The notes: generated by a model from the letters alone, not told the origin. Positions 893 through 27,980 are shown, numbered from the stretch's first letter. The stretch is DNA of 32,000 nt from Promethearchaeota archaeon (GCA_030606485.1 JAUWGH010000006.1:210001-242000); one strand, 5' to 3'. Numbers and translations are program-made.

Positions 893-931
893 TGTTTTAT
901 ATAAATATCTGGGTAGATTTTGTAAAAACAT

Positions 932-1411
932 TTAAGAAGTATACTTTTTTGTAGCTTCTAAATACTTAGTATCCTTGCTATAGTCAAAAGATGCAATGTG
1001 AATAGGTTTTACAATAACTATTACCCACTCAGTTAATTCAGATAAACCTTTCCAATATCCCCTCGCTTCTTTTTCAGACATATACCTACTGAATATAGAA
1101 TGTGCCGCTTGATCCATATCTTTATCATCCATACTGGCTTTGCCATAAATTATAACACCTCTAGTTGGTGGACCTACCTCATCAATTAAAACAGTAACAT
1201 TATTATTTCGTTTGATATTTCTACCTCTACGACTATTTTTAGGAGTTCCAATAACTATCGTATCATTATCATAATTGAACCATACAGGTACTGCATGAAT
1301 TGTTCCATCTTTATTAATACTACAGATTCGTGCAATTTTTGCTTTTTCAAGAAAAGCACTAATCTCTTCCCTAGTTAATGCTGGTGATTGAGTATATGAC
1401 ATTTTAATCAC
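932..1411 (-). CDS. pyridoxamine 5'-phosphate oxidase-like (PPOX class, FMN/F420-binding split barrel) protein
   Basis: FLEKAKIARICSINKDGTIHAVPVWF, NIKRNNNVTVLID, GVIIYGKA match the PPOX pattern. Confidence 0.8.
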   Translation of the reverse strand: MIKMSYTQSPALTREEISAFLEKAKIARICSINKDGTIHAVPVWFNYDNDTIVIGTPKNSRRGRNIKRNNNVTVLIDEVGPPTRGVIIYGKASMDDKDMDQAAHSIFSRYMSEKEARGYWKGLSELTEWVIVIVKPIHIASFDYSKDTKYLEATKKYTS

Positions 1412-1500
1412 TTCAATTTAAATATAATTAATTCTAAACCCTAATAAAACTATAATTTTAAGATAGATATAATTAATAAAATTTAATATATACAATCATT

Positions 1501-1611
1501 TTATATTTTTATTTTACTCAAGATTCCATCGAGATAATTGATATTCTCCTGTTCGAGTTCTTCCTTTAACGCATTCGCTAAAGAATATCTAAACGCCCAC
1601 ACTTCCAAATT
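1501..1611 (-). repeat. NYN gene 3'-end fragment, copy 1 (NLEVWAFRYSLANALKEELEQENINYLDGILSKIKI*)
   Basis: Hand translation of the minus strand matches the last 36 residues of the NYN ORFs ending at 3755 and 14264. An in-frame TAG (1612-1614) lies directly upstream and there is no start codon. Confidence 0.95.
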
Positions 1612-1905
1612 CTATTAATAATATGTTAAAATTCAATAAAAAACAAGGTTCATAGGAAAAGGGATAAAAAAATTAAGACATGAATGTTTAAAATTAAAGA
1701 AAAGTATCGCGATAAAAATAATCCATAAAATTAATTTAATTCCTAATTTAAAATATAAAAAAATTCACCCTACCAAGAAATAAAATTAAATTATTTTCAA
1801 TTTTTGATTCTTCCTGATATAGATTAGTGTTGATCATTGTGATCGTCAATCTTGGAAATCTATTCTAATTATTTTCTAAATTAAATAATAATTTAAAATT
1901 GATTA

Positions 1906-2361
1906 TTAAGATTCAGATGAGTCTTTATTCTCACTTGAAGTCTTTAGAAACTTTAGAATCTCTTCTTTAAATAATGTAAAATCAGGAAGTCCATGGCAAA
2001 TTTCTTTAAAAGCGACTTCATCATCAATCTTTCCATATCGATGGACTAAGAAATTTCTAAATCCCTTTAACTCCTTAATTTTCTCAGCCATTTTTTTTGA
2101 TAAAATATTATTATCCAATAAAGCATCGATAATATCGTCCCTATTTGAAGGGATTCCTAATTTTAAATCCGAATTAATTATTGAGCAAATACTAATAATT
2201 TCTTGAATTGATGCTTCGACTTTTTTATAAATACCATCTTTAACTAAGCCTAAAGCTTTAAATTCGTTTATATTATCAGGAAGATTTTCTTTTACTAAAT
2301 CAATACTTTCTTCAATTACTTTAATTTTAGTTTTAATTATATCAGTTCTCAAAACAATCAC
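1906..2361 (-). CDS. HEPN (DUF86/HepT-like) ribonuclease toxin
   Basis: R-X4-H motif in GFRNFLVHRYGKID; 4-nt overlap with the upstream MNT gene. Confidence 0.9.
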   Translation of the reverse strand: MIVLRTDIIKTKIKVIEESIDLVKENLPDNINEFKALGLVKDGIYKKVEASIQEIISICSIINSDLKLGIPSNRDDIIDALLDNNILSKKMAEKIKELKGFRNFLVHRYGKIDDEVAFKEICHGLPDFTLFKEEILKFLKTSSENKDSSES

Positions 2362-2741
2362 CGATTAATATAATCCAAATATAATGGATAAAATTCTTCA
2401 TATTCATCAATAGTCTCGTTAGCGATTTCATATATCCTTTCTTCTTCCTTCACATATAGAATTTCACCTTTTAATACCTCAATCTGAACATATAATGGAA
2501 GTAATTGAAAAATCTGAATATCAAATTTTTCATTAAACATTTTTAATAATTCTAAACGTATTTCTGGGAGTTTTTTCATTTCATCATTAAAATATAAACA
2601 GATATCTATATCACTATCCTCTAAATGATATTCACTCAGAGAAGAACCATACAAAATGAAAAACTCTATTTTGGAAAAATACTTTGTATCTCTTAACTGC
2701 TTTAAAAATTTTTTAGCTAATTGTTTAATCTCTCCTTTCAT
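2358..2741 (-). CDS. minimal nucleotidyltransferase (MNT/MntA-like) antitoxin
   Basis: LYGSS...DSDIDIC motif and DIQIFQLLPLY segment. Probable start is ATG 2741 (MKGEIK); the ORF track extends to 2789. Confidence 0.9.
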   Translation of the reverse strand: MKGEIKQLAKKFLKQLRDTKYFSKIEFFILYGSSLSEYHLEDSDIDICLYFNDEMKKLPEIRLELLKMFNEKFDIQIFQLLPLYVQIEVLKGEILYVKEEERIYEIANETIDEYEEFYPLYLDYINR

Positions 2742-3115
2742 ATTAACATTATATCTTAAATAAAATATATAATCATTGCTGTAAACCATACTATAAATTT
2801 TGTCATAAATTTATCATTTTAACGCCATAATTTGTATTATTTATTAATTTCATACTCTAAAAAAGATACCCGCGAATTTTGATTATTCTACTATGGATTA
2901 GATTGTGATGAAAATGTAAATCCATTTTCTCCAATTCCTAATACTACTTTCATTTGCAATTACTCATAGGTTATCATTATCCTTTTTTCTGAATGTTTTA
3001 TTCTTTTTTTATACTTCAAATTCTTAATTTTATGGGACCAAATCAATTTGCTGGATTTCAATTCTTTTAAAAAATCATGCGGACTGTATTAATTCCCGTA
3101 ATATCAATATCCAAA

Positions 3116-3172
3116 GAGTTCTTCCTTTAACACATTTGCTAGCGAATATCAAAACGCCCATACTTCCAAATT
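3116..3172 (-). repeat. NYN gene 3'-region fragment, copy 2 (NLEVWAF*YSLANVLKEEL), degenerate
   Basis: gagttcttcctttaacacatttgctagcgaatatcaaaacgcccatacttccaaatt aligns with 1555-1611 and with both full NYN genes; the Arg codon has become TGA. Confidence 0.9.
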
Positions 3173-3311
3173 CTATTAGTAGCATCTTTATAAAAGACAT
3201 TTTATAAAAAATAAAAATTTAAATGTATGCCTATAAATTTGTATTTTGTACCGAAATCTAATCTAATAAAAAAAATTATAAAATGAAATTATATAGAGGT
3301 GGAAAATAAAA

Positions 3312-3626
3312 ATGATATTTATTTCATATTGGGAGTTAAATCCTGATTTTGACCCAGCAGATTTGGCTGAAATGGCACAAGAGCTTATTAGTAAAAAAAT
3401 CTACCCCCCTGAAGGAGTTAAGGAAATTGCATTTTATATTAGTACCTCGGATTATTGGGGTATTAGTATAGATGAAGCCGACAGTGAAGAAGCTTTAGCA
3501 AGGAATAGTAATATGTGGAGAATTGCTAAACCTGGTATTATGAAATTTATTAAAACCGCTCCTGCTATGGAAGTAGTCAAAATGCTCCCACTAGTGGTAA
3601 AATTGAAAAAACAAATAAAAGGTTAA
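3312..3626 (+). CDS. small hypothetical protein, DUF3303-like
   Basis: 104-aa ORF starting MIFISYWEL; clear paralog of the minus-strand ORF near 29.2-29.5 kb (shared WRIAKPGI). Family name is from recall only. Confidence 0.55.
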   Translation: MIFISYWELNPDFDPADLAEMAQELISKKIYPPEGVKEIAFYISTSDYWGISIDEADSEEALARNSNMWRIAKPGIMKFIKTAPAMEVVKMLPLVVKLKKQIKG

Positions 3627-3754
3627 TATTGAAGAGACTTTCTTTCTTTATCAAGGCTCCAGAGTAAATTATATATCAAAATTAAAAATCTTAATTTTCT
3701 TTTTTTTTAAATCCCGCCATTATTTATCCCAATAATTAAATAATTACATTCAAA

Positions 3755-4252
3755 TTACATCTTTATTTTGTTTAATACATCATCAAGATAATTGATATTC
3801 TCCTGTTCGAGTTCTTCCTTTAACGCATTCGCTAACGAATATCGAAACGCCCATAGTTCTAAATTTTTATCCAATTCTTTTACTTTCTTAACAACAGGTA
3901 CAAAATCACCGTCTCCAGATACCAATATAGCCGTATCATATGCATTTTCATACGCAAGAGAGATTATATCAATCGCGATTTTTATATCAACTTTCTTTTC
4001 AACGGCATCACTAAACGTTATCTTATCAAAACTGGCTTTAATCACATATCCACTTAGATTACTTAAATCCTCATACCACTTCTTTTTCTCCAGACTCATG
4101 GGATACACGACACCTTCATATAAAAATATGCCCTGTAATTTTCGGCCCCGAGTTATGATGTTTTTCAGCTTTTCATAGTCTGCCTTGATGTTAAACTTCC
4201 TAAAACCCTTGAAAATGTTGCTATTATCTATAAAAATTATGATTCGTTCCAT
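3755..4252 (-). CDS. NYN domain (LabA/DUF88, PIN-like) nuclease, copy A
   Basis: IFIDNSN, EKKVDIKIAIDII and DTAILVSGDGDFVPVV motifs. Start set at ATG 4252 because the paralog at 14264..14761 has the same 498-nt length. Confidence 0.92.
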   Translation of the reverse strand: MERIIIFIDNSNIFKGFRKFNIKADYEKLKNIITRGRKLQGIFLYEGVVYPMSLEKKKWYEDLSNLSGYVIKASFDKITFSDAVEKKVDIKIAIDIISLAYENAYDTAILVSGDGDFVPVVKKVKELDKNLELWAFRYSLANALKEELEQENINYLDDVLNKIKM

Positions 4253-4463
4253 TTCAAAAACCTTTTTTGTTACCTTAAAATGCAATTAATGATTGATGAT
4301 TAATAATAACTATGCAAGAACCGAAAAGACGAAAAAAACTCCCGAATCGCCAACAACTTCGCAAAATGAGACCTTAAGAGTAAATATTGTGGTGACCTAA
4401 TTAAAATCAAATAAATCAATCAAATATAAATATGAAGATAAAACATATCATTTCTGCAATACC

Positions 4464-4658
4464 GTGTGTGAGGTCGAATTTAAAAGTGACCCTAAAAAAT
4501 ACATTCAAAAAGAAATAATTGATGCTTTTATCGTTCGTGATAAAGATCAAATTACAATTCCAAAAGAAATCCCAGAAAAATTAGGAATTACGAAAGGAGA
4601 TAAACTAATTCTTGATTTAAAAGAGAATAAAATAATAATTACTAAATATCTCTCATAA
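4464..4658 (+). CDS. AbrB/MazE/SpoVT-type DNA-binding protein, possibly degenerate
   Basis: QITIPKEIPEKLGITKGDKLILDLKENKIII matches the AbrB consensus, with P where R is usual; N-terminus atypical. Confidence 0.6.
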   Translation: MCEVEFKSDPKKYIQKEIIDAFIVRDKDQITIPKEIPEKLGITKGDKLILDLKENKIIITKYLS

Positions 4659-5097
4659 ATTTCGACAGCAACATATAGTTTAATATTCGATTTTATTATA
4701 TTTTACGTTATAAAAAATTTTAATAGATTTATAACTTAAATATCAAAAGTTTTCAATTTAAATATATCTCCATTAAATTTACGTATCAAATTTTACCAAA
4801 AATTAATTAGTATGAATTTAATTAATAAATTAAATTTGTTTTATGCCTTTTTGTTTAATAATGTTTTTATGGCAAGTTAAAGAAGTATCTACTAGAAATC
4901 AATTTTTTCATGTTGGAAAATGTCCCCATCGTCCCAAATTCAGGATAATAATTGGACTATATTATATTTTAATTATTTTTATCATATAAATACACATTGA
5001 ATAAAAATAATAAGTATCGAATAAAAGTGATTTTAGAAGATAGTTAATTCTAATATAAAATTTTTAATCTACAGAAAATAGAGATGATTTATCTTTT

Positions 5098-5808
5098 TTG
5101 AGTGAAATTGACAATAAAACTTTTCTTTATAATTATAAATTCAGAGTAATTTTTACTTGGGTTTGGTTTTTTATAGGTTCACTCATAGTTATTCTTATCT
5201 TTTTTATAATAAAGAATTTTAACATCGAAGAGACCCTAGCAATTTTAAATAATGAAAGGCATTTAATGGTATTCATAGAATTTAGTTCAGTCGGATTTAT
5301 GCCCTTATTAATTACTATAATGTGCAAGGATAATCTTGGCCTATACGGTGTGAATAAAGTTAAGAGAAATATACTTAAATCTATTGTTACTTCAGTTTTG
5401 ATGATTGCAATTATGTATAGTATTGGTTATTTACTAAATGGTGTTATAATAAAATATGAATCTTATGATTTTGGTCTTGAAATTCCTTGGAATATCATAT
5501 TTGGAATTATTAGTGTGTTTACATGGGGACCTTTAGAAGTATTTTTTTATATTTGGCTGCTAACTAATACAGATATGATATTTGATGAGAGAAATAAGCT
5601 GTTCTCAAAGGGATTAATCATAACAACTATTGTTTTTGCAGCTGTTCATATCCTTACTACTAATGTTTTAAATGTATTCTATGTGGGAGGTATTTTTCTT
5701 GTTTTAGGATTGATTTATAAGTATTCTAATAACATTTTGGGTCCAGCTATAGCTTGGACGATGATAAACGGAACGATATGGTTTGTATCTCAAATGTTTT
5801 GGGTATAA
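5098..5808 (+). CDS. CPBP (CAAX protease/Abi) family intramembrane protein with degenerate catalytic motifs
   Basis: Multiple TM segments; PLEVFF, FAAVH and WTMIN occupy the EExxxR, FxxxH and HxxxN positions. Confidence 0.65.
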   Translation: MSEIDNKTFLYNYKFRVIFTWVWFFIGSLIVILIFFIIKNFNIEETLAILNNERHLMVFIEFSSVGFMPLLITIMCKDNLGLYGVNKVKRNILKSIVTSVLMIAIMYSIGYLLNGVIIKYESYDFGLEIPWNIIFGIISVFTWGPLEVFFYIWLLTNTDMIFDERNKLFSKGLIITTIVFAAVHILTTNVLNVFYVGGIFLVLGLIYKYSNNILGPAIAWTMINGTIWFVSQMFWV

Positions 5809-5834
5809 TATAATATCTATTTTTTAACACGTTT

Positions 5835-6457
5835 TTAATATTCATGAGGTAAAGTAAAGACATAGATACTTACAAAAAGAACATCATAATCGTCCTTAAT
5901 CTCTGATCGCTTTATTTCGCCAATAACCACATTACTTCTTGCATGTGAAACCATCATGACAGTCCTTAATATCACCGGAAGTTTCAATTCTCTTGAAATT
6001 TTAAATGCTCTTTTTGTAAATTTTAAACATTCCTGAGGATTGCTCGGTTCTAATGCCGGTACTTTTAAAAGTTTTAAATAATACCTTAAATCCATTTCAA
6101 CAGCATTCGAATGCTGTTGAGGGTCATCAGCAACTAAAATAACTAACGCCGAGTTTAAATTTTTTGGACGAGTCGTAGCAAGAGCCAATAGAGGATCTGA
6201 AGCAACGTTTAATCCCACATTTTTCATGCCAACCATAACAGTGGCACCTCTTGCATATGCGGCACCGGCGACTTCTATAGCTACTTTCTCATTAATACTT
6301 GACTCCACTCATTTCATGCCTACCCCTGTGAAAATTTCCATGAAAATTTCTCCAACTTCAGAACTGGGTGTGCCCGGATAAAACGTGAAAACATCTAAAC
6401 CACTTTCTAAAGCACCACGAACTATCGCCTCGTTTCCTAAAAAGAAATTCGTTCCAT
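5835..6457 (-). pseudogene. iorA: indolepyruvate ferredoxin oxidoreductase alpha subunit, N-terminal remnant
   Basis: LGNEAIVRGALESG...FYPGTPSSEV, then in-frame TGA (6309-6311), then SINEKVA, MKNVGLNVASDPL, ADDP, EPSNPQE. ATG 6457 is out of frame with the body, and the gene ends after about 200 codons against the convergent CPBP gene. Confidence 0.85.
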
Positions 6458-6632
6458 TTTAAAGACTCTTTTCGTAATTAATAATTTAATCTTTTTTAAA
6501 TCCTCCTTTTAACCAAGGAAAAGATTATAATCATCACAACGAAAATATGAGAGAGGAGGAATATTGGAATTGATTAAAAAGGAAATTTTTAGATTCGGGA
6601 ATAAAATTGTTTTTTAAAATGTCAAATTAATT

Positions 6633-6992
6633 TCATTTCTCTTTTGATTGCAAAGATTTTTTAATCTTCTGTTTATATTTATCTAAATCTAATTTTAAAA
6701 TTCGCTTAATTCCAATATCCGCCTCTTCTTCTGTTAAATCCAATCCAATTTTATGGCGGTGGCAGATATCGATAAACTCCCAAAGATTAATACCAGCAAT
6801 CTCCGATGCTTTTCCAAAAGACACTTTTCCCTTCTTATATTCATCTAGTGCAATCTCAATCTTTATTTCGCGAATGGATTTTAAGAGTAAATGACGGATA
6901 GCGGTACTTTTATCCATTTTCAAAATTTTTTGCAATTTTTCAATTTCTTTATTCAAATCCGAAGGTATTACAATTGACAATCTTTCACTCAA
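6633..6992 (-). CDS. UPF0175 family protein (putative antitoxin)
   Basis: N-terminal RHH-like segment, then ALDEYKKGKVSFGKASEIAGINLWEFIDI; 8-nt overlap with the DUF3368 gene. Confidence 0.85.
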   Translation of the reverse strand: MSERLSIVIPSDLNKEIEKLQKILKMDKSTAIRHLLLKSIREIKIEIALDEYKKGKVSFGKASEIAGINLWEFIDICHRHKIGLDLTEEEADIGIKRILKLDLDKYKQKIKKSLQSKEK

Positions 6993-7479
6993 ATCTTTTT
7001 CCCTCTTTTAAATATTTCTCATATACTTTGGGAGATATCCAGCCATTTGCAGCATATTTCCCCAAATTTGATTGAAATAGTGTCGAATCAATCATGTTTT
7101 CTTTACGTAATAATAAAAGTGTATCCGCAGTAGATACTACTTCAATCTCTTTTTGTTCTGCAACTAATCGACCCTTTTTTTCATCCATTACCAATAATCC
7201 ATCTAATTGTTGCGCTAATTGTATTGCTTCATATTCTCCCGCATGAAGATAATCTTTTAAAATTGGATCATGCAGACTAATCTCCATTTTTTTAATTTTT
7301 TTATTTTTAAAATAATTTTGTAAAAGAATTGCATCAGAAAATCCAATTTTTATTCCTTCTTCTATTACCTCAAAATAAACTTTATCGGGAATAACAATAA
7401 AATCAAATAAATTTAAAATAAAACTAATTTTACCAATTTTGGTTAGATGAATCAAAGGAGATGAATCAAATATGATCAT
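6985..7479 (-). CDS. DUF3368 PIN-domain protein (VapC-like putative toxin)
   Basis: IFDSSPLIHL, IPDKVYFEV, LHAGEYEAIQLA and LVMDEKKGR motifs. Confidence 0.85.
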   Translation of the reverse strand: MIIFDSSPLIHLTKIGKISFILNLFDFIVIPDKVYFEVIEEGIKIGFSDAILLQNYFKNKKIKKMEISLHDPILKDYLHAGEYEAIQLAQQLDGLLVMDEKKGRLVAEQKEIEVVSTADTLLLLRKENMIDSTLFQSNLGKYAANGWISPKVYEKYLKEGKRFE

Positions 7480-7621
7480 TTATGATATTATATGTATTTT
7501 ACATATATATATATCTAACTTTTATAATTACAGAAAACGAAAATAATGTTTCTAAATCAATTATATTCTTACTATTTAGTTGTAGGAAAACTCTATCTAT
7601 AAACTTGGACATATTGCCCTA

Positions 7622-7644
7622 CCCCATCGATAGAGGAGATGGGG
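7622..7644. other. GC-rich hairpin CCCCATC-N9-GATGGGG in AT-rich intergenic DNA
   Basis: Perfect 7-bp inverted repeat read directly from the sequence; function unknown. Confidence 0.4.
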
Positions 7645-7849
7645 ATATTCTTAATATTTTTAAAACTTCATTCGTCTTCATTAATACTATTAATTAGAAG
7701 AATATGCACTCTATAGGAGATACGGTCTTTCAATTTAGTAATTCTTTATAAAGAATTATAAGAAAATCTAAAATATTATCAAATAATAGAAAATTTTAAG
7801 GGATTTATTATTTTTACTAACTATATGGAATTTAAAAAGTGGATGTTAT

Positions 7850-8299
7850 TTGTCACATACTAAAATTTTAACTAAAAAGAAAAAAAATATAGCTCTGATC
7901 GCCCATGATGAAAGAAAACAAGATCTCATAGAATGGGTAAAATTCAATAAAGGAACCCTTAGCCAACATAATCTTTTTGGGACTGGGACAACTGGATCAC
8001 TAATCACACGTGAACTAGGACTTAAAGTAAAAACCTTTTTGAGCGGTCCCCTAGGGGGTGACCAACAGATTGGAGCAAAAATCGCTGAAGGAGAAATCGA
8101 TTTTCTCATCTTCTTTTGGGACCCTCTTGAATCCAATCCTCATGATCCAGATGTAAAAGCGCTTTTGCGAATAACTGTCGTTTGGAACATACCTGTAGCT
8201 TGTAATAGAGCTACAGCGGATTTTCTAATCTCTTCATCCCTATTGTCTGAAGAATATAAACGTTCAGTGATTGATTATGCAAAGAGATATGGAACATAG
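7850..8299 (+). CDS. mgsA: methylglyoxal synthase
   Basis: [42 protein letters not shown] and [14 protein letters not shown] are all diagnostic. Confidence 0.95.
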
Positions 8300-8547
8300 T
8301 AATTTAAATAATCCAAATTATTGAGGATAATGAGTCAATTCTCATCATCAAAATAAAAAATTCAGAAGACCATCATATCTATATCCTAAATGGTGAGGCT
8401 GAATTTTCCCACGATAATGGAGTAATTTATGCAGATACCTTTTTAGTAAAAGAAAAGGTCGTAGTTAAGCTTTGTTTATCTGAAAAAATCGATTTATCAA
8501 AAAATTACAATAGAAAAATTATCAGTTGATTAGAATTTGGTAATCAA

Positions 8548-8931
8548 TTAAGGTAGAATTAAATTGAAATAATCAATTAAAATGTTTTTTATTCGTTTTA
8601 AATCAACATCATCTATCTTTCCCCATTTTTTTATAAACCTTTTATGACTTAAAGATCTAATTTGATATAACATTGCTATGGATTTCTTCGTTAGCCCATT
8701 TTTTTGTGATGGATTTATTGTATATGTATGATGGAATTTTCCAACTTGCAAATTACTTGTTAATGGAATAATTGTTGACAAATTCACAAACTTATTTACT
8801 TTAAGAACGATGCATGGTCGCTTATCCATCATCTCATGTTCTATATAATCTGTTTTAGTATATGATAATTGAACTAACCAAATTTCTCCTTTATTGATAT
8901 TAATTTTTTTACCTGATTGCATTAATGTCAC
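8548..8931 (-). CDS. MazF/PemK family endoribonuclease toxin
   Basis: GEIWLVQL, KRPCIVL, IIPLTS and SIAMLYQIRSLSHKRF. Confidence 0.88.
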   Translation of the reverse strand: MTLMQSGKKININKGEIWLVQLSYTKTDYIEHEMMDKRPCIVLKVNKFVNLSTIIPLTSNLQVGKFHHTYTINPSQKNGLTKKSIAMLYQIRSLSHKRFIKKWGKIDDVDLKRIKNILIDYFNLILP

Positions 8932-8936
8932 TCTGT

Positions 8937-9482
8937 TCAGTCATCTGCTAAATCCCATAATTCCATTTCCTTCTTAACATCCTCAGTAAGAAAATCTGGA
9001 CTAAATAATATTTTTTTAACTACATTTATTCCAATGGTGATCATCCAATCTTTTAGATAGGGCTTCTCTTTTTTTGTATAGACAAAGAGGTCATCATCAA
9101 GAAAAGAAGGATACTTTTTTTTAATATAAGAAATTGTGGCTAAAGTTTCTAAAAATTCAGAAAAATGATCTTTCATTAATCCATGTTCAAGTATATTTTT
9201 TTGGACGTTTTTCAATATTATTTCTTCATCTTTAGTGAATTCTTGTATTAAATCCTGATTTGACACAAAATTTGGATAGTTAAAATAGTCTGCCGTTAAT
9301 GAACTACTATAGGGACCTTTTACATATAAAATAAAATGATATTTTAGTGGATATCCCAATGCTTTTGATATATAAGCTAATTTTTGCAAAATAAACCGTG
9401 TCTGATAACTTTTTCTTGGATCTTCTAAATCAATATTCCAATACTTCAATGCTGAACATAATTTTTTAAAGTCTTCGCTCAC
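8937..9482 (-). CDS. SocA/Panacea (DUF4065)-like winged-helix protein, putative antitoxin
   Basis: RFILQKLAYI...YHFILYVKGPYSSSL resembles the LQKLxY...GPY signature; lies directly upstream of mazF. Confidence 0.6.
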   Translation of the reverse strand: MSEDFKKLCSALKYWNIDLEDPRKSYQTRFILQKLAYISKALGYPLKYHFILYVKGPYSSSLTADYFNYPNFVSNQDLIQEFTKDEEIILKNVQKNILEHGLMKDHFSEFLETLATISYIKKKYPSFLDDDLFVYTKKEKPYLKDWMITIGINVVKKILFSPDFLTEDVKKEMELWDLADD

Positions 9483-9823
9483 ACTTCATCACTAATTATT
9501 TGATTAATATTTTTAGTAAATTTCTTAAATTTTTTAAGTTCTCTTCTTCCTTTTTCACAAATCAAGTAAATATCTAACTTTTTATTATCTAATGTAATTT
9601 TCTCCTTTTTTATATATCCCATTCTGCTTAATTGATTTATGTTTGAAATTAATTTACCATCTGAAATATTTAAAACGTTTTTTAACTCTCTAAATTGTAA
9701 TCCATCTTTAAAATAGGAAATGAAAATCAAGAGTAATATCCGAGTTAATGTAAAAATATCAGAATTTATTTTTTTATAACCTTCTAAAATTGATTCTATT
9801 GCTAAATCTTCATTTATCTCCAT
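9479..9823 (-). CDS. winged-helix transcriptional regulator (HTH_34/MarR-ArsR-like)
   Basis: FRELKNVLNISDGKLISNINQLSRMGYIKKEK...YLICEKGR; 4-nt overlap with the next gene. Confidence 0.8.
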   Translation of the reverse strand: MEINEDLAIESILEGYKKINSDIFTLTRILLLIFISYFKDGLQFRELKNVLNISDGKLISNINQLSRMGYIKKEKITLDNKKLDIYLICEKGRRELKKFKKFTKNINQIISDEV

Positions 9824-9943
9824 TTTTTTTCAATATTAATAATAAAACTATTTTATTTAAATAATATGATTTACATTCAAAAACAAAGTAAAATAAAAAG
9901 TGAATATTTATAAGTTTTTAAAGTGATTTTGATTACTAATTTA

Positions 9944-10363
9944 TTAATAATCTAATTTAGAATCCAATGAATCCCTTAAACTATATTTCTTATATGCTTT
10001 TACCTTTTTCTGAATGCTATCAATTAAATGCGCCGGAAATTCGTCTAATGTTTTATCTTTAAATTGCTTATAACAGGAACAACAAAACTTCAATTCAAAA
10101 ATTTCAATATTTTTATGAAAAAAATGATTCCTCCTTGCTATGTTGTCAACCCTCCTTTCACAATTAATACAATAATCAAAAAATCTGGTGATTTTCTCTT
10201 CCTCAATTTCTTTCTCTGTCTTCCCAGTAAATATAAATTCATTTCTTATTTGATCTCTGATTGCTAACCGCAAATGTTCTGGCCTATAAGTCCCGTTGCA
10301 TCTACTACCTTCTAATAATTCCTTTATATTTGAATCTGATAAATCAACCGTAATTATCCTCAT
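9944..10363 (-). CDS. hypothetical protein: RHH-like N-terminus plus Cys-rich putative zinc finger
   Basis: MRIITVDL...EHLRLAIRDQI resembles a ribbon-helix-helix; CINC and CCSC pairs follow. Confidence 0.5.
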   Translation of the reverse strand: MRIITVDLSDSNIKELLEGSRCNGTYRPEHLRLAIRDQIRNEFIFTGKTEKEIEEEKITRFFDYCINCERRVDNIARRNHFFHKNIEIFELKFCCSCYKQFKDKTLDEFPAHLIDSIQKKVKAYKKYSLRDSLDSKLDY

Positions 10364-10614
10364 GAGTTTAATTCTCCTAATAAATCATTCTCTTTCTGTT
10401 AAAAATACTGATGTAATTTAGATTTATAAATATTTTCCCCATTCCAATTATTTATAAATTAGATGTAATTGTTTTTTTCATTATTAAATAAGATTTAAAA
10501 ATATTTTATTTAGTAAATGAACGTGTAAAAAAACTTTTCAACTGAAATGAGAAAAATTAAAGCTAATAAATTTGCCTATTGTTTTAGTAAATTTATAATT
10601 AATACACTAGATTT

Positions 10615-10938
10615 ATGCTGATTATGAAAGAAAATTCATCTACAAAAAAATTAATAATTAAAGCGATTGAAATTAAAGGTAATTGCCCTGTTTATAAAAT
10701 AGGAGATAAAACTGTTATTGAAGGTCCGGAAATAGACTTAAAACAATCAGATAAAGTGTGTATTCATGCTATATCATGTCTTGGGAATTTCATTGTCGCA
10801 CTACGAGAAGGTTTAAACCCTCAATCACTAGGTCTCGCAAAAGAAAACAACAAAAAAGCTTACTATCAATGTCTCGATCCTGGAACACCATATACTAATG
10901 GTGGAACTGTAATCTTTGAAGTTACACAGGTTTACTAA
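10615..10938 (+). CDS. TIGR04076-family Cys-rich protein
   Basis: KGNCPVYKIGD, VCIHA and CLDPG...GGTVIFEV. Confidence 0.75.
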   Translation: MLIMKENSSTKKLIIKAIEIKGNCPVYKIGDKTVIEGPEIDLKQSDKVCIHAISCLGNFIVALREGLNPQSLGLAKENNKKAYYQCLDPGTPYTNGGTVIFEVTQVY

Positions 10939-10962
10939 TTAAATTTAATAAATACAATCATT

Positions 10963-11010
10963 TTACATTTTTATTTTAATTAAAATATCATCGAGATAAT
11001 AGATATTTTC
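10963..11010 (-). repeat. NYN gene extreme 3'-end fragment, copy 3 (ENIYYLDDILIKIKM*)
   Basis: Matches the last 15 codons of both NYN genes; the flank 10943-10962 (atttaataaatacaatcatt) matches 1481-1500. Confidence 0.85.
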
Positions 11011-11075
11011 CAAAATCGGGTTCCGGTAAAGTTTTACGGCGAGAATTAATCGATATAGATTTTAAATTATTTTAA
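11007..11075 (+). pseudogene. C-terminal scrap of an acyl-CoA synthetase/AMP-binding enzyme
   Basis: Translates as FPKSGSGKVLRRELIDIDFKLF*, matching the A10 PxxxxGKxxRRxL motif; no upstream body. Confidence 0.6.
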
Positions 11076-11093
11076 ATTTTTTCATAATACAAT

Positions 11094-12224
11094 TTATTTT
11101 TTAGTTAATATTCTATTTCTTTTTGAAAGTATATAACCAATAGGATTAAATATAAGCGCATTAGATGATCTCAATAAAAATTGGATAATTGGAGCTGAAT
11201 ATATTTGAAAGGGGGAAGGATCATGAGTAAGATCTAAAAACCATCGAAATTTAGGTGTCCAGTTAGGTTTTATAGAATATTTCTTCATCAACTGTCTCAA
11301 TTTTTGTGATAATGGAAATGCGAATTTATCCAAGGAATATTTTTGCTTGATACCCCATTTTTCATATAATTCTTTATTAATATTTGCGTGGATTAGTTTT
11401 CTCGAAGGGTAACCTAATAGTTCACAACAATATAAATCTAGTTCAATTGGATTATCTGCGATAAATAATCGATTTAGAGGTATTGGAAAAGAGATATGAG
11501 GCCCTAATCCTATTCCAACTTTAGATCCCCCTATTATAGATAAACTGGGTCTCATAACTCGTCCAGCAGCTGCAATAATCTCATCTAAATGTCCATGAAT
11601 ATGGTATATTCCTTTATACCACTCGGATAAGGCTCCAAACATATTTTTTTCTGTCAAACTTACACCAGTTTCCCAATGATTTTTTAAAGGACATACAGAA
11701 ATAATGAAATTATTGGGATCTAACATAATTTTTGGAATACTTATAGAATGCGGAACTCCAAAAGCAAAAAAACGCACCTTTTCGACAGAAGATAGATTTA
11801 TGAATTTACATGATTTTAGAATCTCTTTATATCCTCTTTTCCTAAGAAGTTTTTCTGTAATAATTAGAGTAATCATATCTGCTTCGCATAGATAAATGTC
11901 TATTCCCGTACCACCAAAATAATCAATGAGTGATTTTATTATTCCTGATTCAGTATATGTTGAGGTATTTCCAGTTACTCCCCCTCCCATATTAATTTTA
12001 ATTAGAATTTTTGAAATTGTGGACAACTTTTTATTAAAAGGAAATTTGGATAAAACCTCGGAAGGATCATCATAAAAATTCTTTATGGACCTTATGAATA
12101 TCTTATTTATTTTATCTATATCATAATCTCGAGGGCTTATCTCTTTTCCAAATAACTTACCCGATTTTGAATACACTTTATAATAAGGCGTATCAATAAT
12201 AACTTTATCATCCATTTTTCTCAT
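11094..12224 (-). CDS. DUF362 domain putative Fe-S protein
   Basis: ILIKINMG, IYLCEAD, LKNHWETGVSLTEKNMFG, and DNPIELDLYCCELLG. Confidence 0.75.
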   Translation of the reverse strand: MRKMDDKVIIDTPYYKVYSKSGKLFGKEISPRDYDIDKINKIFIRSIKNFYDDPSEVLSKFPFNKKLSTISKILIKINMGGGVTGNTSTYTESGIIKSLIDYFGGTGIDIYLCEADMITLIITEKLLRKRGYKEILKSCKFINLSSVEKVRFFAFGVPHSISIPKIMLDPNNFIISVCPLKNHWETGVSLTEKNMFGALSEWYKGIYHIHGHLDEIIAAAGRVMRPSLSIIGGSKVGIGLGPHISFPIPLNRLFIADNPIELDLYCCELLGYPSRKLIHANINKELYEKWGIKQKYSLDKFAFPLSQKLRQLMKKYSIKPNWTPKFRWFLDLTHDPSPFQIYSAPIIQFLLRSSNALIFNPIGYILSKRNRILTKK

Positions 12225-12424
12225 GTGTTTTCATAATCTAGTTAATACTATTCAAAATGAAAATAATAGAATAAATATTTTTTATATGCTATTTTATAAC
12301 ATTGGCGATGTAAATAAATTATCTTATCGCAAAATTCATAACTTTCCAATATAATTTCTCTAATTTCTGTTGAATCTAAACAAATTAATAGTTTATCTAA
12401 ATCCCGAATGTTTTCACCATAAAT

Positions 12425-12673
12425 ATGATAATTATTGATCCCGTCTGCGGTATGAAATTAAAATTTATCTATTTGTCAGAACGGCTGAACAAGCTTTTAA
12501 CAATTTCCAAGTCAGGAAGAATCGTTATAATGTGCGCTGAAATATTTTGGTTCAGATGCCACCGCAGATGGATTGCAGAACAGTTAGTAATAGCCGGACG
12601 TAAAGTAATTCATATAATAGATGATACAAAAACATATCCTCATAAGTTGCGCAAAGAGATTCAGGAGGATTAA
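12425..12673 (+). pseudogene. chimeric ORF: YHS-domain start fused to a DUF488 C-terminal half
   Basis: IIDPVCGMK (YHS start), then IMCAEIFWFRCHRRWIAEQLVIAGRKVIHI (DUF488 C-terminal motif); neither domain is complete. Confidence 0.6.
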
Positions 12674-12693
12674 ATTTAATTATAAGATCGACT

Positions 12694-13365
12694 TTATTTT
12701 TCTAGTGTAATCTTCATCCAAGTATCTATTAGCACCATTTGATAACTATCTTTGAATTTAGTTTGCTCTAAAATATTTTTAATTTTAGTGTTATATTCTT
12801 CCCATGTAAAACCATGTAGCTTAGTGATACGGCTTGATATCAAATACCGTAAAAATCCGTATTTTCTTAATAATTCATTTACTTCCTCTTCAGGAAGGTC
12901 AGAACATCCATCATAAATCCATCCTTCTCCTTTACTTTTCAAAACGCGGTAACATTCATTGAAAACTTTAACTGGATTCTGCCAGTGATGAAAAGAACCT
13001 GTACTTACAATAAAATCAATTGATTCATCTTCAAATGGTAAGTCGGTAGCATTACTTAATTTAAATTGTACATTTTTAATGTCTCTCGCATTACGCGTTG
13101 CAATCTCTACCATTTTCTTACTCAAATCAATCCCATAAATCGTGAGCTTTGGTGCCCTTTTTGCTATTTCTATTGATAAAAAACCCGTTCCTGAACCAAT
13201 ATCTATGAGAATTCCCTTTTCTATTCTTTGAATAATAGTTAGGGCAATTTTAGTTTCTGATTTGCTTAGAAGCTTTTTTATAAAAGCATTATAAAAAATA
13301 GCACCCAGAGTAGGAATTGCTTCAAATTTTACTTGTATATCCCTAATAAATTTAATTAAACACAC
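12694..13365 (-). CDS. class I SAM-dependent methyltransferase
   Basis: LIDIGSGTG, YGIDLS, NATDLPFEDESIDFIVST and RVLKSKG. Confidence 0.9.
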   Translation of the reverse strand: MCLIKFIRDIQVKFEAIPTLGAIFYNAFIKKLLSKSETKIALTIIQRIEKGILIDIGSGTGFLSIEIAKRAPKLTIYGIDLSKKMVEIATRNARDIKNVQFKLSNATDLPFEDESIDFIVSTGSFHHWQNPVKVFNECYRVLKSKGEGWIYDGCSDLPEEEVNELLRKYGFLRYLISSRITKLHGFTWEEYNTKIKNILEQTKFKDSYQMVLIDTWMKITLEK

Positions 13366-13401
13366 TTGTATCTAACGTTGTATAATAAAAGATACTAAGA
13401 T

Positions 13402-14193
13402 TTATTTCTTTTGGTTTATTATATCCTGAACAGTAATTTCAGTATGATGATATCTCTGTGTTTTTAAAGTTCCTATACCAAATTGAATAGATTTTTCAGG
13501 GCAAAAATTAATACATGCTAAGCATTGCTGACATTTATGCTGCCATTGTGGTATTCCCTCTATTAGTATAATATTATTTACTGGACAAACCTTTTCACAT
13601 ATACCACACTTGTTGCAATTATCATCGGAGTAGAATGATTTATCACTTTCATACACTTCCTCTCGAAATTTATAATTAAATCTTTCACTCCTACTTACAT
13701 CTTTTTCAAAAATATCTTGATTGAGATTTTCTCTTTTATCCTTTAAAATTTCAGAGATTAATTCAACTTCTTTAATTGCATTTTCGAAAAACTCTTTTTG
13801 ACGTTCTTCTGAGTGAATATCATACGCAATAATGAAATTATTGGGCATAATAATATAAAATCCAGCACTAAGCTTTTTCTCTTTCGTTTTTAAAATCTTC
13901 TCCAACTGTTGTAAAGGAAGTTCGTTAATATCTCCAGCATACGTTATAACCGTAAAAAAATAATTGGATTTACTAAGATCTATTTTGTTTATAAAATCAT
14001 ACACTATTTTAGGCAATCCAGAATAATATAGGGGAAAAATAAAACCTACTTTTTCACTCGTCGATGCAAGGTTTTCCATTTCCCAAACCTTTGCAATGGG
14101 TATAAGTTCACAGTCTTCTAACTTTTCGGCAAGAACTCTCGCAATCTTTAAAGAATTGCCCGTTCCAGTAAAAAAATAGATTGTCGTTTCCAT
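13402..14193 (-). CDS. EFR1-family flavodoxin/[4Fe-4S] ferredoxin protein
   Basis: YFFTGTGNS flavodoxin motif plus CNKCGICEKVCP and CQQCLACINFCP. Confidence 0.88.
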   Translation of the reverse strand: METTIYFFTGTGNSLKIARVLAEKLEDCELIPIAKVWEMENLASTSEKVGFIFPLYYSGLPKIVYDFINKIDLSKSNYFFTVITYAGDINELPLQQLEKILKTKEKKLSAGFYIIMPNNFIIAYDIHSEERQKEFFENAIKEVELISEILKDKRENLNQDIFEKDVSRSERFNYKFREEVYESDKSFYSDDNCNKCGICEKVCPVNNIILIEGIPQWQHKCQQCLACINFCPEKSIQFGIGTLKTQRYHHTEITVQDIINQKK

Positions 14194-14263
14194 ATATACT
14201 TAAAATGCTCTCTTCTTTTAGAGTTTATTAACCTTTAATCCAATTTCTGGTGAGACACTCTTT

Positions 14264-14761
14264 TTACATTTTTATTTTACTCAATATATCATCAACATAA
14301 TAGATATTTTTCTGTTCGACTTCTTCCTTTAACGCATTTGCTAACGAATATCGAAACGCCCAAACTTCCACATTTTTATCCAATTCCTTTACTTTCTTAA
14401 CAACCGGCACAAAATCCCAGTCTCCAGAGACCAATACCGCCGTATCATATGTATTCTCATACACAAGAGAGATTATATCAATAGCGATTTTGATATCAAC
14501 TTTCTTCTCAATGGCATCACTAAACTCTATCTTATCAAAACTCGCTTTAATCACATATCCACTTCTATTACTTAAATCCTCATACCACTTCTTTTTCTCT
14601 GGGCTCATGGGATACACAACGCCTTCATATAAAAATATGCCCTGTAATTTTCGACGCTTCGTTATGATTTTTTTCAGTTTTTCATAGTCTGCCTTGATAT
14701 TATACTTCTTAAAGCCCTGGAAAATGTTGCTGTTATCTATAAAGATTATGATTCGTTCCAT
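14264..14761 (-). CDS. NYN domain (LabA/DUF88) nuclease, copy B
   Basis: 143/165 residues identical to copy A by hand count; SGDGDF has become SGDWDF. Confidence 0.92.
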   Translation of the reverse strand: MERIIIFIDNSNIFQGFKKYNIKADYEKLKKIITKRRKLQGIFLYEGVVYPMSPEKKKWYEDLSNRSGYVIKASFDKIEFSDAIEKKVDIKIAIDIISLVYENTYDTAVLVSGDWDFVPVVKKVKELDKNVEVWAFRYSLANALKEEVEQKNIYYVDDILSKIKM

Positions 14762-14878
14762 TTCAAAACCCTTTTTTGTATCCTCAAAATAACATTAATG
14801 ATTTAATGTTAAATCTTACTTTTCTTATTTAAAAGCGGAAGGATTTAAAAAGCATAATTTTCTTAAAACTGAAAAAAA

Positions 14879-15298
14879 TTAATGAATTTCAGAATTTAAA
14901 GATGTTATTTTTTTATACTGTTCCTCAGGTAGGTTATCCTTAACAATTTCAAAAAGTTCTAATAGGATATGATCTGGACCTTCAACCATAACATACTTCC
15001 ACACCCCATAGCTTTTAATTTGATTTCTAAATTTATATCCTTTACTTTTCATATGTGCTACAAGAGTCTCAAGATCATCTGTCTCTATCCCTATATGATG
15101 TACTATTCCACGCGCCTTATCTTTAGGTGGCTGATCATAGAAATTAAGTTTCGCAGAGCCAATAGATATCATAGCATTCCGAGCTCCTGCCATCTCCAAA
15201 TCAAATAGTACTTCTGCACCAAACATCTCATGATAAAATTTAATACTTTCATCGATATTAGAAGCAAAAAGGTGTGCATGATGTAAATTTGTTCTCAT
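14879..15298 (-). CDS. VOC (glyoxalase/bleomycin resistance) family protein
   Basis: LHHAHL...FYHEMFG, VHHIGIETDDL and VEGPDHILLELFE. Confidence 0.88.
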   Translation of the reverse strand: MRTNLHHAHLFASNIDESIKFYHEMFGAEVLFDLEMAGARNAMISIGSAKLNFYDQPPKDKARGIVHHIGIETDDLETLVAHMKSKGYKFRNQIKSYGVWKYVMVEGPDHILLELFEIVKDNLPEEQYKKITSLNSEIH

Positions 15299-15471
15299 TT
15301 CTTATCCCAATCAATTAACAATTAAAATTCTCAATTTTAAAATTAAGTAAATGAAATAAATAATTGACTATTCTAATATTATTATCAATATTATAAATAA
15401 TCAGAAACTATTTTTATCTGAAAGAGCAGTAAATTTTTTTATATTATTGAAAAAAATAAGATTGAGCCATT

Positions 15472-15657
15472 TTGCCTGAATATGAAGTTAAGATAAAATT
15501 CCATATTTTTCCATATAGAAAATTCAACATTATCGCTACTGATGATGAAGAAGCGAGAAGAATTGCTAAAATCCAAGCAGAACATATTATTGATACTTTA
15601 GACTTTACTATTGCTAGTATAAGACCTAAACGATATTTGATGGACAGGTTTTTATGA
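15472..15657 (+). CDS. small hypothetical protein
   Basis: 61-aa ORF with TTG start; IIATDDEEARRIA has a plausible beta-alpha pattern; no family recognised. Confidence 0.4.
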   Translation: MPEYEVKIKFHIFPYRKFNIIATDDEEARRIAKIQAEHIIDTLDFTIASIRPKRYLMDRFL

Positions 15658-15723
15658 AAAGAGCAAATCTATTCTGTCCATGATCGAATTAAAAAGAGAA
15701 AATTTTTACTCTTAATTTAACTT

Positions 15724-15783
15724 AACATTTGCTAAAGAATATCTAAACGCCCACCCTTCCACATTTTTATCCAATTCTTTTAC
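15724..15783 (-). repeat. NYN gene 3'-region fragment, copy 4 (VKELDKNVEGWAFRYSLANV)
   Basis: Aligns with both NYN genes and shares gctaaagaatatctaaacgcccac exactly with copy 1. Confidence 0.9.
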
Positions 15784-15987
15784 TTCCTTTTTTAATATTT
15801 TAACTGTGACAAATTTAATGCGTCCCTTAAACTATTAGTAAACTCAATAACTAATATTTTATCAGAGAATAATCTATATTTTTTTGTTAAAGCCCCAAAT
15901 GTCATAAATTTTTAGAAAGTTAATATTAAACTTTATAAAATTACATCTTTCCTTTAAATTTATAACAAAAATGATTATTCAGTTGAT

Positions 15988-16266
15988 TTATCCCCAATCG
16001 CTTTTATAACCAGTTCCTCCAGGGGGCCATGAGAAAATGATTGCCTCTTCCTGACAAACATACCAGCAAACGGCACATTCCAAACATTTTTCTAAACTCT
16101 TAATTTTAGCTTTTTTTTCCATGATTTCGAAACACCCAGCTAAACAAACTTTCACACAATTGCCGCATCCTATACATTTCTCATCATTAATTTTTATAAA
16201 CTCGCCCGCGCCCTCAACCCATTGCACACCAGGAAAATCTTTAAATGTTTTAACCATATTTATCAA
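15988..16266 (-). CDS. 2x[4Fe-4S] ferredoxin (FixX-like)
   Basis: CIGCGNCVKVC and CLECAVCWYVC; begins 7 nt after the flavoprotein stop. Confidence 0.88.
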   Translation of the reverse strand: MINMVKTFKDFPGVQWVEGAGEFIKINDEKCIGCGNCVKVCLAGCFEIMEKKAKIKSLEKCLECAVCWYVCQEEAIIFSWPPGGTGYKSDWG

Positions 16267-16273
16267 CTCTTAC

Positions 16274-17938
16274 TTAATATACATAAAATATTGATGGATT
16301 GGCTTTATCTACAAATTTTATCATTTTATTGCTTAATTTATTCGATATAGGATTTAATAATTTTATAATCGCTGAATTGATGGGCTCAATAATAGGCAAA
16401 CTTTTTCTCATTAATGTGTTCAAAGAATTTGAAAGAGGAATTATAATAATTTTAAGTACTCTTCTTATCCGCAGCATTGATTTCATTATTAAGTCTATAA
16501 ATCTCAACGTGCTTAGAAATTTGCGTTCCTTCTTTCTGACTCGTTTTGATGCTGTGACTTTAATAACCTTCTTTTTCACATAATCATAACTCTCGTGAAG
16601 CCAATTCTGATAATAACGGAAGTACATCTTAATCCATTTTGTTATTATCGTTGGATCTTCTTTCACATAGGCAAGGAGCAGCTTCATGAACGGCGTGGTA
16701 AAATGTGTCAACGAGCCTAACCCCCAACCTTGATGAATATACTTCTTGAGCTTCTTTATATCATGCTCTTGTTGAGCGATACGCAAATTATAGCGATTTC
16801 TACCCTTGATAGACCACTGAATAATTGAATGTGCCTTTATCTTATCATCATATTTCTTCAAAAAAGCTTTGGAAACGTCATTGGCTTTAATTGCTTCAAT
16901 TGCGACCTGGGCGGCAATTTCGGCTGAATACCATGCTGCCGGCACGCCATCACACAATTCTGTACTTTCAAGCCCCGCAGCATCTCCAATTAATATCATA
17001 CCATCCGTATGATTAGGCATTTTCCGGAGCTTTTTATTTAGCCCTACATAAATCTCGAAACCTTCCCACATCCTTGCACGCAATTTAGCTCGAGGAGCTA
17101 CTAAATCTTTCCACCACAACAGTTTTGAAGTTATATTATGATGATACTCATCAAATAGTTTACCTAAATTTGGCACCGATTTCTGATCTGTTCTTAAACA
17201 CTGGTCCTGCATAAAATGAATACTACTTCTATAAGGCCACACCATTAGACCATTGCCATAACCAAGCGGCGGAGATATTTTTTGCTCGTCCCAACCCCAA
17301 CACATCTTAACGGAATATCCAAAAATTTTATCAATGTCTTCTTTTCGCATAACATAGTCGTATGTATCGGCTAACGAGATGGTTTCAGGTGGATATTTTT
17401 CGCGTACGCCCGCCTTTATCGCTAATATGCCCTGCGAGCCCTCAGCATTTATTACAATCTTAGCCCTAATTTTCTCGCCTTTATCTGTTATAATTCCTTT
17501 AATGAATTCGCCCTCTTTTATAAAATTGGTGACTGTAGTTGACGTCCTTAGTTCAACGCCTGCCTCCACGGCCTTTCTGGCTTGCCACTGACAAAATGGC
17601 TTACAATAAGTATTATAACCAAATGCAATGATCGGAGAGAGTGGTTTCGGGACCTTTAGTGAATCATCGATTTCAATATCCCCTTTATCGATGTCTTTTA
17701 TAATATAGTTTACTATACCATCAGCAGGACGCTCAAAGGGAGGATTACCATCCCTAATAAATGCTGGAGCAAATAAAAATCCTTGAAATGGAATAGTTAA
17801 ACCCGAAATGACTTTATCGCCAACATTCTCAGAACGTTCAAGCATTAAGGTTTTAAGCTCGGCATCAGCACAGAGCTTCGCTGCTACAGAGCCCCCAAAC
17901 CCAGCACCAACAACAATAATATCAAAGTCTTCGTCCAT
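16274..17938 (-). CDS. FAD-dependent oxidoreductase, geranylgeranyl reductase/FixC-like
   Basis: DIIVVGAGFGGS, LMLER, IVINAEG and ILIGDAAG; long basic C-terminal extension. Confidence 0.82.
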   Translation of the reverse strand: MDEDFDIIVVGAGFGGSVAAKLCADAELKTLMLERSENVGDKVISGLTIPFQGFLFAPAFIRDGNPPFERPADGIVNYIIKDIDKGDIEIDDSLKVPKPLSPIIAFGYNTYCKPFCQWQARKAVEAGVELRTSTTVTNFIKEGEFIKGIITDKGEKIRAKIVINAEGSQGILAIKAGVREKYPPETISLADTYDYVMRKEDIDKIFGYSVKMCWGWDEQKISPPLGYGNGLMVWPYRSSIHFMQDQCLRTDQKSVPNLGKLFDEYHHNITSKLLWWKDLVAPRAKLRARMWEGFEIYVGLNKKLRKMPNHTDGMILIGDAAGLESTELCDGVPAAWYSAEIAAQVAIEAIKANDVSKAFLKKYDDKIKAHSIIQWSIKGRNRYNLRIAQQEHDIKKLKKYIHQGWGLGSLTHFTTPFMKLLLAYVKEDPTIITKWIKMYFRYYQNWLHESYDYVKKKVIKVTASKRVRKKERKFLSTLRFIDLIMKSMLRIRRVLKIIIIPLSNSLNTLMRKSLPIIEPINSAIIKLLNPISNKLSNKMIKFVDKANPSIFYVY

Positions 17939-17973
17939 TTATAAAATATTGAATAAAGAAGTATATAAATTTA

Positions 17974-18210: not shown

Positions 18211-18262
18211 TTAACTCCCTTATACTTAAAAAGTTGTTCAATCATTTAAATCTTTTCTTAAA

Positions 18263-20277: not shown

Positions 20278-20338
20278 TTTTCACTTAAAGTTTCAAATAA
20301 TTTTAAAAAAATATAACATTATTTTTAAAAATAAAAAA

Positions 20339-27978: not shown

Positions 27979-27980
27979 AT

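Follow-up and report, generated by a model that had tools for sequence, protein, structure and literature searches.

Co-oriented NYN gene remnants in a rearrangement hotspot of a Lokiarchaeial genome: probable scars of homologous and illegitimate recombination

The stretch of DNA analysed here, referred to as the window, is a segment of 32,000 nucleotides (nt), G000:C4:210001-242000, of a Lokiarchaeial genome (Promethearchaeota, Asgard archaea; G000, 3.75 Mb in 13 contigs, 29% G+C), and this study concerns the complete and partial NYN nuclease genes that it carries. The window is a chromosomal accessory and defence region in which gene-sized modules have been gained, lost and reshuffled. Two intact NYN genes and four co-oriented pieces are found inside 15 kb, and Pfam and BLASTN searches bear out the original prediction, made from the sequence alone, of two full genes and four start-less fragments on the minus strand. 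That prediction had placed the fragments between unrelated modules, and its module labels are right: PNPOx, MNT-HEPN, DUF3303, TIGR04076, DUF362, methyltransferase, EFR1, VOC and ferredoxin-GGR. The window was compared with two genomes of the same genus (G001 and G002) and with 130 related loci drawn from collections of genomes and metagenomes (L numbers). Positions within NYN are given as gene nt 1-498, and those of the fragments as window positions. DNA of the window is present in 20 DNA sequencing runs of nine studies, all cold-seep and marine-sediment metagenomes, and in 0 RNA runs, a count with no bearing on expression. The source is a cold-seep sample, and further samples contain 54-69% of the stretch. 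Exact-protein look-ups gave no record for NYN_A (as 165 or as 176 amino acids, aa), NYN_B or the DUF3303 protein. The NYN genes, their fragments and the two cassettes associated with them are the following:

3755..4252, minus strand: NYN_A, intact PIN-like nuclease gene (Pfam PF01936, E 1.5e-23)
14264..14761, minus strand: NYN_B, second intact NYN gene (Pfam PF01936, E 1.5e-24)
1480-1611, minus strand: frag1 (R), gene nt 388-498 and about 21-30 nt of 3' flank; right direct repeat of the MNT-HEPN insert
3116-3172, minus strand: frag2 (R'), nt 388-444, reaching 3188 with a shared 16-nt non-NYN junction; left direct repeat of the MNT-HEPN insert
10942-11011, minus strand: frag3, nt about 450-498 and about 25 nt of flank; abuts the TIGR04076 stop codon
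15726-15789 (core), minus strand: frag4, nt 364-427; decayed extent 15709-15831, aa 111-149, with one in-frame TAA
1612..3115, minus strand: MNT-HEPN toxin-antitoxin cassette (Pfam HepT-like and Polbeta/NTP_transf_2), of strain-variable presence
3189..3733, plus strand: DUF3303 cassette (Pfam DUF3303), between NYN_A and the remnant

Both intact genes belong to the NYN family, scoring 84.4 and 87.6 bits with PF01936, whose curated cut-off is 24.2, and covering profile positions 1-136/138 of 145, and they match NCBIfam TIGR00288 only in part and under its cut-off. NYN_A and NYN_B show 88.7% nucleotide identity across 540 nt, which begin 41 nt ahead of the ATG and end with the stop codon; they have this gene-sized unit in common and no shared flank, and the conserved NYN unit extends from about -41 to +503. 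BLASTN and TBLASTN searches of the whole 3.75-Mb genome restrict NYN-like DNA to the 15-kb stretch, save for one distant paralogue on contig C10, and the four fragments, all on the minus strand, were recovered by BLASTN with E values from 1e-11 to 2e-34. The full copies are under purifying selection, with a ratio of non-synonymous to synonymous substitution rates (dN/dS) of 0.10-0.19, and of 0.13-0.17 when NYN_A is compared with the other copies. In the SGDGDF motif, a Trp replaces a Gly in NYN_B, which is otherwise under purifying selection, and the Gly is present in NYN_A and in the relatives. The 'full-length' NYN genes of L062 (2904-3401) and L112 (about 9983-10471) contain in-frame stops, and to judge from these NYN seems dispensable in some lineages. 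In G001 and L063 the EFR1 promoter region matches as far as window 14255, but the gene upstream of it is a different one, not NYN_B. Across the compared loci, NYN is shown to be a recurrent resident of the region, which has occupied several positions in several copies.

The four fragments differ in extent and in context. The 5' junction is common to frag1 and frag2 and includes an in-frame TAA TAG, and the repeat on the frag2 side (family D2) is 86% identical to 1555-1627. A remnant of the frag1 type, located about 70-90 nt upstream of PNPOx in the window, is also present in G001, L058, L059 and L061. The statement that all the fragments come from the last ~40 codons is roughly right, the departure being frag4, which is internal to NYN and not terminal. 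Likewise, the reported lack of an N-terminal fragment holds in the window, except for a weak 29-nt promoter/start look-alike at 6447-6475 (the start of an iorA pseudogene), but not in the relatives, where NYN pieces cover aa 1-44, 1-69, 1-75, 1-142, 9-142 and 13-111 (5' or internal) and also 102-156. The look-alike was rejected as a true 5' fragment of NYN, 29 nt being too short.

Related loci contain counterparts of the fragments at the same positions. In L063, an intact NYN is continuous with the 3' flank of frag1 and PNPOx (L063 3670-4363 corresponds to window 1611-918, 95.5% identity), and in L062 and L097 an NYN of intact length is continuous with the flank of frag3 and TIGR04076 (window 11011-10285, 94%). 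For frag4, contig C170 of G002 (L030) shows a 3'-truncated NYN of nt 1-427, followed by the frag4 junction and flank (97.3% over 330 nt), so that in this genome the sequence found on the VOC side of frag4 comes after the truncated gene; G001 retains only the 5' junction. These alignments show each NYN fragment to be the remnant of a copy of which a relative retains, at the corresponding position, either the whole or a larger part. Since the fragments match resident NYN copies at their own positions, they are not displaced att halves or pieces of one target gene.

The region from NYN_A to PNPOx can be arranged in a series of three alleles. State 0, found in L063, shows NYN-PNPOx. State 1, found in L058, shows NYN-DUF3303-R-PNPOx, where R consists of nt 388-498 behind the TAATAG junction. 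State 2, found in the window and in L059, shows NYN-DUF3303-R'(388-444)-MNT/HEPN-R-PNPOx. The empty-site allele that the original prediction had recommended looking for is therefore available for MNT-HEPN: L058 has one uninterrupted remnant, and the two stretches over which it aligns to the window have 72 nt in common, corresponding to a single repeat copy, while G000 and L059 have two repeat copies around MNT-HEPN. This cassette is missing at the same site in G001 as well. The DUF3303 cassette, which is present in L058, L059, G000 and G001 and missing in L063, shows the same insertion-duplication pattern in the comparison of L063 with L058. A direct duplication of resident sequence flanks each insert, of ~111 nt in the first case and of ~73-85 nt in the second, including roughly 23 nt of non-NYN flank. 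At each step of the series, new DNA lies between the repeats and none of the neighbouring genes is duplicated. This combination of a flanking duplication with an empty-site allele is the footprint predicted for insertion-duplication. An assembly artefact, which had been named as a possible refutation, was rejected, since the junctions are reproduced in two independent assemblies: L058, and the metagenome contig L059, which has the same junctions as the window and is collinear with window 918-4280 (96.4%) through frag1, MNT-HEPN, frag2, DUF3303 and NYN_A.

Several alleles are mosaics. Compared with NYN_A, L059 is ~9.5% different at nt 1-409, identical at nt 410-519 and ~5% different downstream, and L062 and L097 are identical to each other at nt 424-669 and ~12% different upstream. 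Homology between related loci often ends at one border of NYN and runs on past the other. Upstream of NYN_A lies the same flank (memb236 and a small plus-strand gene at ~4420-4658) as upstream of the truncated NYN in G002. The mosaic alleles and the exchanged flank are taken as evidence for homologous exchange within NYN, and the mosaic 3' ends suggest exchange between partial and full copies. A junction of another kind is found at frag3, where the 5' end and a piece of an acyl-CoA ligase gene meet in a microhomology of 9-10 nt, GGAA(A)ATATC. This piece is common to G001, L058 and L059, and its junction with frag3 is also seen in G001; the source acyl-CoA ligase gene is located at window -1886..-219, 11 kb from frag3.

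The reading preferred here, at a probability of about 0.65, is that homologous and illegitimate recombination, with no dedicated integration machinery, produced this arrangement and left pseudogene scars of NYN. New DNA would enter by host homologous recombination anchored in NYN or in its remnants, either through a single-crossover insertion-duplication or with one homologous and one illegitimate end, and microhomology joins would also take part. Such an entry would spare one intact NYN and leave a partial, co-oriented duplicate beside the insert. The direct repeats, once formed, could permit the loop-out and re-entry of the bracketed cassette, for example MNT-HEPN, and crossovers between NYN copies would swap the flanks. 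The remnants themselves would be functionless, and their persistence may reflect weak selection for a compact genome. Asgard archaea show high, often tandem, gene duplication, and streamlining selection on them is probably weak (PMC13247210), with which the persistence of the NYN scars is in line. Among the alternatives listed in the original prediction, repeated NYN insertion followed by decay comes closest to the data, in the form of repeated NYN copies that later decayed.

The surroundings of the NYN genes are consistent with this reading. Collinearity between G001 and G000 extends over about 37 kb and as far as window -2813, beyond which shared blocks are reordered with genome-specific DNA between them; the reordered gene-sized blocks are EFR1, the DUF3303 gene with the R remnant, NYN, iorA, the intron reverse transcriptase fragment and DUF362, and G001 lacks nearly all of window 15900-32000. 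Invariant gene content between the copies, given beforehand as grounds for dismissing a hotspot, was not what was found: the content between the NYN pieces is strongly variable among genomes of the same genus. With its conserved flank and its strain-variable defence and toxin-antitoxin genes (MNT-HEPN, UPF0175-PIN, MazF and ThsB-TIR/SLOG), the locus has the make-up of a variable hotspot or defence island. The region is therefore a genuine hotspot of insertion and rearrangement, and some of its cassettes lie between NYN-derived direct repeats. The proposal of a landing pad was right in this respect, the locus being a landing zone used more than once, with occupied and empty alleles, variable content, and NYN repeats that bracket DUF3303 and MNT-HEPN, but the data lend no support to an att-like site or an integron-like array.

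NYN itself does not stand out from the rest of the genome in orientation or layout. Local repeats (at most 25 kb apart, 45-1000 nt long and at least 78% identical) are direct in 75 cases and inverted in 1 over the whole genome, at 32 loci, so the co-orientation of the NYN pieces is not special. The layout of gene, insert and 3' fragment is also found for at least four other genes of G000 (C10:322594-329127, C10:437664-440070, C13:45855-48342 and C8:320064-322938), each with a direct copy of its 3' end, 66-219 nt long and 84-97% identical, 1-5 kb downstream and unrelated genes between. One of these inserts contains a 940-aa open reading frame (ORF) and a 280-aa ORF, the start of the latter being DUF3800-like by eye. 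Across the 130 loci, partial and full copies number about 10 and about 77 for the neighbour genes and 21 and 110 for NYN; NYN is not clearly more fragment-prone per copy, and is the most conserved and most often duplicated resident.

Some observations weigh against recombination without dedicated machinery. Its steps are read from alleles of different populations. The remnant copies differ mostly at synonymous positions (dN/dS 0.05-0.11, over very few sites), a pattern which also fits translation of the remnants; we infer that it may come from exchange with functional alleles where states 0 and 1 coexist. MNT-HEPN is also found without NYN repeats, upstream of DUF362 in G001 and L060 and in another context in L091, and thus the repeats are not required for its movement. 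The starts of four apparently independent 3' remnants cluster at nt 442-454 (frag3, L058 6091, L040 and L022), and frag2 ends at nt 444. This clustering hints at a preferred break site and is close to the detection limit for short pieces; it could equally result from that limit together with selection for events that spare NYN. Finally, the three best-defined duplications all overlap nt 388-427, and formally these positions could still be a short shared core worked by a recombinase encoded elsewhere.

The last two observations speak for a site-specific, integron-like capture, in which a recombinase from outside the array, for example a housekeeping Xer-type enzyme, would recognise the 3' core of NYN and insert small cassettes, promoterless or self-contained. 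Occupied and empty alleles with cassettes between NYN-derived direct repeats, as well as an imperfect 8-4-8 inverted repeat within nt 388-427, which is conserved and visible in the fold, also agree with it, but it is judged quite improbable on several grounds. Pfam scans of the window ORFs detected no recombinase or transposase, as had been stated beforehand, and hence no integrase encoded by an element; no IntI-type gene lies next to the array, and the cassettes are too small to encode an integrase. The search for a linked recombinase was equally negative: tyrosine recombinases of family PF00589 number two in G000 (both on contig C1), one in G001 (C8) and two in G002 (C188 and C150), none of them on the NYN contigs of these genomes, and no serine recombinase was found in G000 by a genome search. 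No attC-like hairpin was found among the pieces, whose folds as single-stranded DNA are no better than those of shuffled sequences (z from -0.71 to +0.73), and the window shows no tRNA gene or Rfam family. The boundaries of the duplications vary from one event to the next (nt 388-498; about -23 to 444 of the remnant; -41 to 427; from about 450), so there is no fixed crossover point and no identical core, and one join is a microhomology join to an unrelated gene. The positional match of the fragments to resident copies, the occurrence of MNT-HEPN in contexts without NYN repeats and the 5' fragments of the relatives likewise disagree with capture at a 3' site. The att-like or integron-like mechanism of the original prediction is thus not supported, given the lack of a linked recombinase, the variable boundaries, the microhomology join and the lack of an attC fold. 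A bolder version, in which the NYN unit (about -41 to +503) acts as a recombinogenic module and the NYN nuclease itself or an outside recombinase breaks it at nt about 400-450 and captures cassettes, forming an integrase-less integron-like array, is very doubtful.

An origin purely in tandem or segmental duplication through unequal crossing-over, with later deletion and replacement but no insertion-duplication step, is unlikely. The 75 to 1 excess of direct repeats, the frequency of tandem duplication in Asgard genomes (PMC13247210) and several relatives with a full NYN and a long partial copy (aa 60-70 to 165) speak for it; however, the new DNA between the repeats, with no duplicated neighbour, would need an extra replacement event at each step, and NYN_A and NYN_B share only the gene-sized unit. 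There is very little likelihood that the remnants are functional, as a C-terminal NYN micro-protein of roughly 32-34 aa, as an antisense or decoy RNA or as a promoter element for the downstream gene. The copy adjacent to DUF3303 is kept in at least five related genomes, with an open frame in four of them and a low dN/dS, and frag1 lies close upstream of PNPOx; against this, in-frame stops interrupt the remnant in L059 (TAG) and L075 (TAA), its start codon is not conserved (the TTG is lost in L058 and the GTG in G001), frag2, frag3 and frag4 are truncated differently in unrelated contexts, and there is neither a significant structure nor an Rfam match. Even less probable, to the point of being negligible, are 5'-truncated retrocopies of NYN mRNA made by a group II intron reverse transcriptase, another of the alternatives first listed. 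The genome has one reverse transcriptase gene, a fragment of which adjoins NYN_A, and frag1 and frag3 are 5'-truncated with a common 3' end ~30 nt beyond the stop codon, but these two are positional remnants of resident genes, the full duplicates include ~41 nt upstream of the gene with a likely promoter, the 3' end is missing from frag2 and frag4, and the relatives have 5' pieces, so that the copies do not have the make-up of retrocopies. A diversity-generating retroelement was also considered, given the ~110-nt repeats at the 3' end of a gene and a reverse transcriptase in the genome, and rejected: the mismatches did not look adenine-specific by eye, without a tally, and the reverse transcriptase is a group II intron protein encoded on another contig.

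Recombination anchored in NYN, as preferred here, has parallels in several known systems. Campbell-type insertion-duplication and homology-facilitated illegitimate recombination are established in naturally transformable bacteria. The locus resembles them in the direct duplication that flanks new DNA, the retention of one full gene and the microhomology at a non-homologous junction, and differs from the demonstrated cases in that the events here are reconstructed from alleles alone. To our knowledge, neither mechanism has yet been demonstrated for an Asgard archaeon, and we know of no circular intermediate or uptake route. As in integrase-mediated islands at the 3' ends of genes, the locus shows a full gene, an insert and a displaced 3' piece in direct orientation, but it has no integrase and no fixed att core, and its cassettes are of only 0.6-1.5 kb; the integrated elements described in Asgard archaea have their own (tyrosine) integrases and a short fixed motif (PMC11529989). 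The co-oriented, unrelated small cassettes with related repeats of about 60-130 nt between them recall integron arrays, from which the locus differs by the lack of an adjacent IntI-type gene, of a recognised attI and of a hairpin fold, and because its repeats are pseudogene pieces with differing ends. Like the orphan toxin tips of Rhs/CDI systems and the pilS copies of Neisseria, the NYN remnants are 5'-truncated, co-oriented partial copies near an expressed full gene and able to recombine; unlike them, they contain no alternative variable module, their small number and close similarity leave no scope for diversifying the protein, and several have stops. With variable chromosomal hotspots the locus shares a collinear block of sister genomes that stops abruptly at the island, content that differs strongly within the genus, a cargo of toxin-antitoxin, Thoeris-like and small metabolic genes and a conserved gene as recombination anchor, but here the anchor gene is present in several copies inside the island and leaves partial copies, and the shuffling is by single genes. 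Cold-seep ANME-1 archaea have been described as having variable hotspots with many defence and toxin-antitoxin genes (PMC13385816).

The window also contains other cassettes and gene debris:

11005..11053, plus strand: piece of the 3' region of the acyl-CoA ligase gene, 49 nt, 91.8% identical to C4:209702-209750, in direct orientation
4306..4400, minus strand: fragment of the group II intron reverse transcriptase (intron-encoded protein, IEP), 80% identical over 95 nt to C2:278718-278812; 52 nt upstream of NYN_A
5835..6480, minus strand: iorA (indolepyruvate oxidoreductase alpha) pseudogene, truncated, with a frameshift and a stop
6633..7545, minus strand: UPF0175-PIN toxin-antitoxin pair, a 94% direct duplicate of C4:201976-202886, 14.7 kb upstream
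12425..12673, plus strand: chimeric ORF of 82 aa, with a YHS-type metal-binding N-terminus (DPVCGM) and a C-terminal piece of DUF488
14879..15298, minus strand: VOC/glyoxalase cassette (Pfam Glyoxalase), between frag4 and NYN_B
21337-23976: ThsB-type TIR gene followed by a gene for a 686-aa TIR-SLOG protein (Pfam ThsB_TIR, TIR_2 and SLOG cluster2)

The sole reverse transcriptase gene of the genome is located at C2:276273-278951 and consists of an 892-aa ORF with an internal 150-nt direct repeat; the IEP fragment adjoins DUF362 in G001. The promoter/start region of the iorA pseudogene (6447-6500) is NYN-like, with an M-E-R-I start. In the chimeric ORF, the DUF488 match covers only profile positions 87-121 of 121, and the small plus-strand gene at ~4420-4658 is the converse of this chimera, without the YHS N-terminus. 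The ThsB-TIR and TIR-SLOG pair, by its predicted domains, confirms that the right half of the window has the character of a defence island.

The locus reveals no new integration system; it is a recombination hotspot marked by pseudogene scars, well resolved but of an essentially ordinary kind. Confirmation of a preferred break site in NYN would make it far more interesting. It illustrates clearly, allele by allele, how small cassettes for accessory and defence functions are acquired and rearranged in an Asgard chromosome with no recognisable mobile-element machinery at work. The NYN scars are datable, and the remnants and their junctions are usable as markers of recombination history in Lokiarchaeial populations.

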